A DNA stretch of 64,000 bases from Escherichia coli (GCF_003334385.1 NZ_QOWN01000012.1); one strand, 5' to 3'. Positions 9,830 to 10,276 are shown, counted from the first letter of the stretch. Program-made: numbers and translations. Notes: a model not told the origin generated them from the letters alone.

Positions 9830-10276
9830 AAATTTCTCCTCTGTTGTTTATTTGATACCCATCACACTTTCATCTCCCGGTTTTTTCGCCGGGAGATTTT
9901 CCTCATTTGAAATAAACTAATTTCACCTCCGTTTTCGCATTATATTTTCTAATGCCATTATTTTTTGATTTAGTGTTTTTTGACATTTTTTTAGCTCTTA
10001 ATATTGTCTTATTCAAATTGACTTTCTCATCACATCATCTTTGTATAGAAACTGGTGTATTTTTTGGTTTTTTATTCTGTCGCGATTTTTGCATTTTTTA
10101 ACCATAAGCTAATGTGATGATCAATTTTACCTTATGGTTAACAGTCTGTTTCGGTGGTAAGTTCAGGCAAAAGAGAACGATTGCGTTGGGGACCGGGAGT
10201 GGCTCCGATGCTGGGTTTCGTGGTGATAATTTCACCATGAAAAAGTTGTCAGCCCCGCTTATTCAATGAGGACAAG
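9830..10276 (+). promoter_or_regulatory. gcvTHP promoter and upstream regulatory region (AT-rich, T-tract-rich ~450 bp)
   Basis: Long non-coding AT-rich stretch with many T/A tracts directly upstream of gcvT; K-12 gcv control region is known to bind GcvA, Lrp, PurR and CRP. Individual sites not mapped. Confidence 0.45.

Follow-up and report, generated by a model that had tools for sequence, protein, structure and literature searches.

The gcvTHP operon of Escherichia coli is regulated, as stated in a review, by GcvA/GcvR, Lrp, PurR, and CRP (PMC13104608). GcvA footprints of 35 bp and 57 bp that contain CTAAT motifs have been mapped upstream of the operon (PMC5002191), and a repression loop formed by GcvA, GcvR, and Lrp, with Lrp-assisted bending of the DNA, has been described (PMC13104608). 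The small protein YqfI is encoded between gcvT and ubiI; its chromosomally SPA-tagged form was detected by immunoblot (VanOrsdel et al., 2018; PMC6001520), and yqfI was positive in a tetracycline ribosome-profiling screen (PMC6001520).

We analyzed the interval 9830-10276 in a stretch of 64,000 nucleotides from E. coli (GCF_003334385.1 NZ_QOWN01000012.1), hereafter the window, with all positions counted from the first letter of the window. The interval is 100% identical to the corresponding sequence of strain MG1655, the window being E. coli K-12-type chromosome, and all 5426 of 5426 complete E. coli genomes contain it, with identities of 90-100%. It extends from the stop codon of ubiI to the ATG of gcvT, and the annotated gene order is pepP-ubiH-ubiI-yqfI-gcvT-gcvH-gcvP. 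A first-pass annotation of this DNA had described a long AT-rich gap of non-coding type, about 450 bp in length, upstream of gcvT. In agreement with this description, the gap measures 447 bp, has a GC content of 0.358, and ranks second in length among the ~55 intergenic gaps of the window. It is also the longest gap between co-directional genes in the window, the other gaps of more than 400 bp being located between divergent genes. Using GcvT as a query, we retrieved 80 Enterobacterales loci; the ubiI-gcvT synteny is kept across Enterobacterales, with a gap of typically ~380-550 bp.

Based on the evidence presented below, we consider it very probable that the interval is the full ubiI-gcvT intergenic region and the classical gcvTHP control region, which works by an Lrp-assisted GcvA loop over a bent spacer, with yqfI as an overprinted ORF. 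The gcvTHP control region is already known, and YqfI is catalogued (RefSeq, UniProt). The interval is a composite of the ubiI terminator, the upstream operators, a spacer, the promoter, and a 106-nt 5' UTR rather than a single long leader. The coordinates of these elements are collected in Table 1.

Table 1. Features of the ubiI-gcvT intergenic region and its borders (window coordinates)
Feature	Position	Strand	Description
ubiI	8627-9829	+	Stop at 9829, left border of the gap
CRP-like site TTTGATacccaTCACA (also TTTGATACCCATCACA)	9851-9866		Located at about -312.5 from the predicted transcription start
ubiI intrinsic terminator	9872-9909	+	Predicted hairpin (9872-9897; 10-bp G+C-rich stem, 6-nt loop) and U-rich tail
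Upstream GcvA operator, sites 3 and 2 (predicted)	9900-9957		CTAAT at 9917 and 9949; site 3 holds the inverted repeat TGAAAT-N6-ATTTCA
yqfI, 27-aa small-protein gene (MSKNTKSKNNGIRKYNAKTEVKLVYFK)	9903-9986	-	RefSeq CDS 'protein YqfI'
T-run cluster, predicted intrinsic bend	9961-9992		T6 at 9961, T6 at 9976, T7 at 9986; covers the first 9 codons of yqfI with the start codon
AT-rich spacer, fixed length, free sequence	9987-10095		Overlapped by the Lrp-binding region of the literature
GcvA site 1 (predicted)	10096-10141		Inverted repeat AACCATAAG...CTTATGGTT, CTAAT at 10109; block 90-100% conserved
gcvT promoter core (predicted)	10155-10171	+	Extended -10 TGgTAAGTT (10155-10163); putative transcription start ~10171
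PurR operator AAGAGAACGATTGCGT (predicted)	10171-10186		4 mismatches to ACGCAAACGTTTGCGT
gcvT 5' UTR	10171-10276	+	~106 nt, predicted
Hairpin 1	10183-10211	+	Predicted fold of the 5' UTR
Hairpin 2	10216-10242	+	Predicted fold of the 5' UTR
10-codon upstream ORF	10237-10269	+	Stop overlaps the gcvT Shine-Dalgarno sequence; ATG in the 3' arm of hairpin 2
Conserved CUUAUUC	10258-10264	+	Able to pair with the Shine-Dalgarno sequence
Shine-Dalgarno GAGGA	10268-10272	+	Belongs to gcvT
gcvT	10277-11371	+	ATG at 10277, right border of the gap

A phylogenetic footprint, obtained by aligning 67 Enterobacterales ubiI-gcvT gaps, revealed sharp conserved blocks at a CRP half-site, three CTAAT boxes, the -10/start region, a PurR box, and the Shine-Dalgarno sequence, separated by a poorly conserved core. 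The two upstream blocks, 9901-9927 and 9933-9955, with one CTAAT each, were 90-100% conserved in this alignment, and the spacing from site 3 to site 2 was 32 bp in 27 species. The plus strand of the region contains three CTAAT motifs compared with 0.40 expected, a number reached by 4 of 1000 shuffles. Downstream of site 1, the promoter sequence TTTCGGTGGTAAGTTCAGGCAAAAGAG was 90-100% conserved among the 67 gaps, and a near-invariant block, TTTCGGTGGTAAGTTCAGGCAAAAGAGAACG(A/T)TTGCGT at 10150-10187, holds both the extended -10 element and the PurR-type box. The latter is nearly invariant across genera, reading GAACGTTTGCGT, and starts 64 bp past the CTAAT of site 1 in 62 of 63 species; by contrast, the length of the downstream 5' UTR varies from 60 to 175 nt among species.

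In the coordinates of the Stauffer laboratory, GcvA site 1 extends from -69 to -34, GcvA sites 2 and 3 from -271 to -214, and the Lrp-binding region from -229 to -92 (~9942-10079); PurR lies over +1, and CRP is centered near -313. For the last of these sites, a center near -313 was reportedly given by Wonderling and Stauffer in 1999. When +1 is set at 10171, all of these sites land on conserved blocks. Three independent anchors agree in this respect, since the PurR box, the inverted repeat of site 1, and the CRP site each fit the published offset. From the position of the -10 element and these three anchors, we infer a transcription start at ~10171. As the placement of the extended -10 element and the PurR-type box puts the start near this position, the leader would be ~106 nt long. 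The whole gap had been labeled a 'leader' in the first-pass annotation, and this label is wrong, because with this start only the last ~106 nt (10171-10276) would be transcribed with gcvT.

The conserved blocks coincide with the expected GcvA, CRP, and PurR sites, and binding of these proteins is predicted from the sequence. The complex control by GcvA, Lrp, and PurR that had been proposed for this operon, to which CRP is to be added, is supported by both the literature (PMC13104608, PMC5002191) and the conserved blocks at the expected sites. Motif scans had been suggested as a check on this proposal, and their outcome was mixed, with a CRP site recovered at 1 mismatch, whereas the consensus scans for Lrp and PurR were uninformative when taken alone. 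The Lrp consensus had 72 matches compared with 75 expected, including one weak match (3 mismatches) in the region, the motif being too degenerate for this type of scan. The PurR consensus scan at no more than 3 mismatches did not pick up the box at 10171-10186, which has 4.

The CRP-like site is among the 5 sites in the 64-kb window with at most 1 mismatch to TGTGA-N6-TCACA. Its right half-site, TCACACTTTC, was ~90% conserved in 67 species as part of a conserved block at 9862-9871, and a CRP-like site (no more than 3 mismatches) was found at an equal offset, 58.5-59.5 bp 5' of the CTAAT of site 3, in 23 other species. Immediately downstream, the putative ubiI terminator folds with -17.6 kcal/mol (z = -4.7), and none of 200 shuffles folded equally well. 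The terminator arms CCCGG...CCGGG are kept across genera in the 67-gap alignment, and a simple terminator scan of the region returned no match despite the presence of this hairpin.

Within the region, the GC content drops to a minimum of 0.265 in a 200-bp window, and the AT skew goes to -0.41, which reflects a strong excess of T over A on the plus strand. Long T-runs are in excess, with 7 runs of at least 6 T compared with 2.9 +/- 1.4 in dinucleotide-preserving shuffles (2 of 500 shuffles reached this number), and A/T tracts of at least 4 were not in excess (14 compared with 13.3 in shuffles). The first-pass description of the DNA as rich in tracts therefore stood for the long T-runs and failed for tracts in general. 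Its further statement that the tracts are repeated and phased was borne out locally, by a cluster of three T-runs at 9961-9992, but not for the region as a whole: the 10- to 11-bp periodicity of AA/TT was within the range of shuffles for both 9830-10276 (184 of 500 shuffles reached the observed value) and the 9900-10100 core (269 of 500), and it was weakly above the shuffles in 9940-10010 (65 of 500 reached it). Four more long T-runs are located at 10060-10099, beyond yqfI.

Predicted curvature was calculated with three dinucleotide wedge models (Bolshoy/Trifonov, De Santis, and AA-wedge) using arms of +/-15 bp. For calibration, control arrays were scored in the same way: A6 tracts in ideal phase reached 33-39 degrees, and tracts out of phase reached 19-23 degrees. 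The maximum of the entire 64 kb was located at 9981-9984 in all three models and reached 33-39 degrees, above both the mean (8.5-10) and the 99th percentile (21-25) of the window, so that the predicted bend is equal in size to the ideal phased control. It was reached by just 0-5 of 500 shuffles of the region, and because the peak exceeds dinucleotide-preserving shuffles, the predicted curvature does not come from composition alone. The three T-runs at 9961, 9976, and 9986 give rise to this predicted bend, and they form the very string that had been quoted as an example in the first-pass annotation. Across 63 species, the mean predicted curvature peaked 60-80 bp past the CTAAT of site 3, which is the position of the E. 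coli bend, at 20-21 degrees compared with a baseline of ~10, and a second peak of the mean was found directly upstream of GcvA site 1. The strongest predicted bend of individual species shifts between these two positions, and in other genera it does not always coincide with the bend of E. coli. The models thus predict an intrinsic bend at 9981-9984, and the earlier suggestion of intrinsically curved DNA is upheld at the level of prediction, both by the position of the 64-kb maximum inside the region, above shuffles, and by a weaker peak with a matching offset in other genera.

The DNA between the distal and proximal GcvA sites is constant in length and free in sequence. The distance from the CTAAT of site 3 to that of site 1 was 192 bp in 16 species and 193 bp in 47 species, which together are all 63 of the 63 species, and no indels between these anchors were found among 11 Escherichia alleles. 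In the same 11 alleles, the proportion of variable sites was 43% in 9987-10095, compared with 29-34% at four-fold degenerate positions in the flanking genes ubiI and gcvT and with 3% in the block of site 1, the promoter, and the PurR box (3 of 95 in 10096-10190). The core at 9960-10095 is the least conserved part of the gap. According to the literature, Lrp binds and bends the DNA here (PMC13104608), and a structural, phase-dependent role of Lrp in this spacer was reportedly found by Stauffer and Stauffer in 1999.

Since the proportion of variable sites in 9987-10095 equals or exceeds that at synonymous sites, the AT-rich core might be read as a spacer without function or as a patch silenced by an H-NS-type mechanism, with curvature as a role-less by-product of AT-richness; tracts of at least 4 and a 10- to 11-bp periodicity that stay within the range of shuffles, as well as the variation by genus in the position of the strongest predicted bend, point in the same direction. 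However, in spite of many substitutions the length of the spacer is invariant, at 192/193 bp in all 63 species and likewise in all 11 Escherichia alleles, its peak curvature is above that of dinucleotide-preserving shuffles, and published genetics give Lrp a structural, phase-dependent role (PMC13104608; reportedly also Stauffer and Stauffer 1999). We therefore regard this explanation as highly improbable. Constraint on the spacer thus falls on its length, its AT-richness, and, roughly, its shape, while its sequence is free, as would be predicted for a pre-bent spacer coated by Lrp.

According to the loop model established in the literature, GcvA bound at the distal sites 3 and 2, together with GcvR if glycine is absent, would communicate with site 1 and RNA polymerase over ~190 bp, with Lrp, aided by the intrinsic bend, supplying the curvature that closes the GcvA loop. 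The spacer of ~130-150 bp would be coated and bent by Lrp, its left end being itself predicted to be bent. At the proximal end, GcvA site 1 would abut a weak -35 region and the extended -10 element, and the PurR operator would lie over the transcription start. Such a loop would account for the exact length of the spacer, its AT-richness, the bend at a similar offset, and the nearly neutral drift of its sequence.

The statement of the first-pass annotation that no frame shows coding potential did not survive, as the minus strand of 9903-9986 is yqfI, a RefSeq-annotated gene whose translation has been published (PMC6001520). Taken together, the structural and regulatory reading in that annotation is largely right, and the 'leader' label and the no-coding statement are wrong. 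The 27-aa sequence encoded in the window is identical to that of UniProt YQFI_ECOLI (VanOrsdel et al., 2018) and occupies the same place between gcvT and ubiI. The last ~17 codons of yqfI and its stop (9903-9957) overlie GcvA sites 3 and 2, and codons 1-9 correspond to the A-runs of the bent segment, read as Lys/Asn codons. By eye, no convincing sigma-70 promoter for yqfI was found on the minus strand upstream of 9986, and NCBIfam had no model that matched YqfI.

The start, stop, and frame of yqfI are kept in every E. coli allele examined, and none of the 11 Escherichia alleles has a disrupted frame. In these 84 nt the pN/pS ratio was 1.09, and variable sites were distributed 4:6:4 by codon position, values that come from a small sample of 11 Escherichia alleles. 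Residues 9-11 are hypervariable, with 6 of 7 nucleotides variable in the hot spot of codons 9-11. Outside Escherichia, an ATG-started ORF of at least 20 aa that ends at the homologous stop was found in 5 of 64 species and was absent or broken in the other 59; CGA replaces the homologous stop in 24 of 67 species, in-frame stops occur frequently, and the start codon is unconserved. A short-peptide tblastn search gave the appearance of a conserved C-terminal half (IRK.NAK..VKLEYFK) in genera such as Klebsiella and Enterobacter and even in Erwinia, and this stretch is the DNA of GcvA sites 3 and 2. The named members of YqfI protein clusters carry Escherichia labels or multispecies Enterobacteriaceae/Gammaproteobacteria labels.

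These data bear on whether the T-tracts exist because the minus strand encodes a Lys/Asn-rich protein, in which case the composition would be a coding constraint and not a structural or regulatory one. The string at 9955-9995 quoted in the first-pass annotation is indeed the reverse complement of yqfI codons 1-10 and the A-run upstream of them, the ORF is intact in all Escherichia alleles examined, and YqfI has been detected experimentally (PMC6001520). Nevertheless, neither the pN/pS ratio and codon-position pattern nor the hot spot at codons 9-11 is what coding constraint would leave, four long T-runs (10060-10099) lie outside the ORF, and genera without the ORF are still AT-rich and have their mean curvature peak at the same offset. 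Moreover, the 'C-terminal' conservation is that of the GcvA boxes, which persist in species with a disrupted frame or with CGA in place of the stop. The coding explanation is thus improbable, and yqfI is not the cause of the T-tract appearance of this DNA. Rather, yqfI looks like an ORF confined to the genus and overprinted on both the bent A-run segment and the distal operator of GcvA. As judged from published tagging and ribosome profiling, YqfI is translated, but the alleles compared here show no detectable constraint at the protein level, a small sample with which weak selection would be compatible. Most likely, yqfI is a young overprinted ORF that is possibly function-less or weakly functional. 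The published work on YqfI concerns its detection; the present comparison adds its restriction to Escherichia, the lack of detectable amino-acid-level constraint, and its position on GcvA sites 3 and 2.

The predicted 5' UTR of gcvT has a minimum free energy of -41.1 kcal/mol (z = -3.1). RNAalifold recovered hairpin 1 with 3 compensatory pairs, and single-sequence folds of each species showed both hairpins in most genera. When 63 loci were aligned with a covariance model, paired cells amounted to 82% compared with 34-63% in slid-partner controls, with a covariation score of 0.306 compared with 0.07-0.11; a structure-blind MAFFT alignment gave similar values (78% compared with 36-58%, and 0.287 compared with 0.08-0.14). 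According to these alignments, the two hairpins covary across Enterobacteriaceae. The possibility that the 10-codon ORF within the 5' UTR encodes a leader peptide was discarded, because its ATG is unconserved even within E. coli: the codon is lost in an ST131 allele, and other genera have CGC or ACG instead. This upstream ORF is probably incidental.

The conserved hairpins in the last 106 nt, the riboswitch control of gcvT in many other species (PMC13104608), and a consensus-like TTGACA-16-TATTGT element on the plus strand at 9980-10007 could be combined into a different picture, in which all 447 bp are a long transcribed leader with an RNA regulator, a riboswitch or attenuator, like the glycine riboswitch of gcvT in many bacteria. 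Against it, a search of Rfam with 9300-10800 at E-values up to 10 returned only chance-level matches to unrelated families, the glycine riboswitch RF00504 not being among them, and the supposed leader would have its least conserved, nearly neutral part in the 9960-10095 core. The upstream element was rejected as a second gcvT promoter, as it is unconserved even among E. coli alleles and such promoter-like matches occur in the region at chance level (2 compared with 1.5 expected), whereas the extended -10 element and PurR operator at 10155-10186 are highly conserved. A long riboswitch leader is, in our judgment, scarcely credible, and the composite control region with a short 5' UTR is retained.

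Two further ideas are, in our view, rather unlikely even when taken jointly. In the first, the covarying hairpins at 10183-10242 and the conserved pairing of CUUAUUC with GAGGA at the ribosome-binding site would be an undescribed post-transcriptional control element of the glycine cleavage operon, possibly for an RNA-binding protein such as CsrA. In the second, yqfI would have been born de novo from operator and bent DNA, and its transcription or translation through GcvA sites 3 and 2 would feed back on formation of the GcvA-Lrp loop. A CsrA-type platform is suggested because GGA/GGAG is found in the loop of hairpin 1 in many genera. A literature search for gcvT with CsrA, or for any element of the gcvT 5' UTR, retrieved nothing relevant.

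As a textbook multi-regulator promoter, this locus matters little as a discovery. It is a worked example in three respects: a translated small ORF may be hidden opposite AT-rich 'non-coding' DNA, peptide-like conservation across genera may stem wholly from transcription-factor operators and not from coding, and a regulatory spacer may have a constrained length and shape but a free sequence, in line with the model of Lrp-assisted looping. The conserved hairpins of the 5' UTR are the sole element that might lead to something new.

Among known systems, the glycine riboswitch leaders of Bacillus, Vibrio, Streptomyces, and Neisseria are likewise located upstream of gcvT and provide glycine-responsive control. 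In contrast to them, the enterobacterial region has no sequence or structure match in Rfam, its control is protein-based at the DNA level, and its 5' UTR consists of two simple hairpins, whereas the riboswitches are tandem aptamers. Closer similarity is found with promoters that use architectural proteins and upstream curved DNA, such as the Lrp-dependent ilvGMEDA and ilvIH promoters and IHF- or Fis-assisted loops, where an AT-rich bendable spacer likewise links distant activator or repressor sites to the promoter and where length and helical phase, but not sequence, are constrained. Unlike in those promoters, the sites joined by the loop at gcvT, ~190 bp apart, would all be bound by a single LysR-type protein, GcvA, either alone or together with GcvR, and the bend would come from Lrp together with a predicted intrinsic A-tract bend. 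The closest system is the E. coli gcvTHP control region characterized by the Stauffer laboratory (1993-2005; GcvA/GcvR, Lrp, PurR, and CRP), which is the same locus with the same sequence. The matching parts are the three CTAAT GcvA boxes, the predicted PurR box at the start, the far-upstream CRP site, and the AT-rich putative Lrp region between GcvA sites 2 and 1. There is no difference between the two, and the additions made here are comparative, namely the fixed 192/193-bp spacing, the nearly neutral drift of the spacer, the predicted intrinsic curvature, and the overlap with yqfI.

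The control region of the gcvTHP operon, the ubiI-gcvT intergenic region, matched 5436 places in 5426 E. coli genomes, and therefore approximately 10 genomes carry a second copy, which in one of them lies on a plasmid. By E. coli standards the region varies widely, with 973 genomes at 90-95% identity. Among 11 Escherichia alleles, variation includes a 7-nt hot spot in which six of the seven positions are variable; this stretch separates GcvA site 2, a distal GcvA operator box, from the first T-run and corresponds to residues 9-11 of YqfI, the 27-aa product of a minus-strand gene within the gap. 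The AT content of the E. coli gap is distinctly above that of its counterparts in other genera (GC of 0.36 versus mostly 0.39-0.50 in the intergenic regions of 80 Enterobacterales loci).

A promoter-like element, TTGACA-16-TATTGT, whose -35 hexamer overlaps the opposite-strand start codon of yqfI, is conserved neither among E. coli alleles nor across genera. Two further annotated small-protein genes, yqfH and yqfG, lie tail to tail between idi and uacT, their 3' ends sharing 4 nt. Beside argP lies a 76-aa coding sequence, apparently a gene fragment, whose annotation reads 'LysR substrate-binding domain-containing protein'; curvature is predicted to peak strongly there, at 36.8 degrees, near position 1396.

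Features of the 64-kb window (coordinates refer to the window)
Feature	Position	Strand	Remark
Fragmentary coding sequence (apparent)	1333-1563		
ibsC type I toxin	3995-4054		annotation
ssrS (6S RNA)	4778-4961		annotation
ubiI-gcvT intergenic region	9830-10276		
Hot spot	9955-9961		
Sigma-70-like element	9980-10007	+	near-consensus
gcvT 5' UTR hairpins	10183-10242		
Upstream ORF	10237-10269		10 codons; stop overlaps gcvT Shine-Dalgarno
CUUAUUC and GAGGA	10258-10272		
prfB programmed frameshift	24662-25760		annotation
yqfH and yqfG	27934-28127		annotation
IS2 copy	63344-64000		annotation; end of window

An ST131 allele has lost the ATG of the short upstream ORF preceding gcvT, and other genera lack it, so this ORF is probably incidental. 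The two hairpins in the gcvT 5' UTR had no match among Rfam families. Compensatory changes preserve both across approximately 60 Enterobacteriaceae species, and the loop of the first frequently contains GGA or GGAG. Downstream, a conserved CUUAUUC is able to pair with GAGGA, the Shine-Dalgarno sequence of gcvT. Together, the hairpins and the CUUAUUC/GAGGA pairing could constitute a previously undescribed post-transcriptional element.
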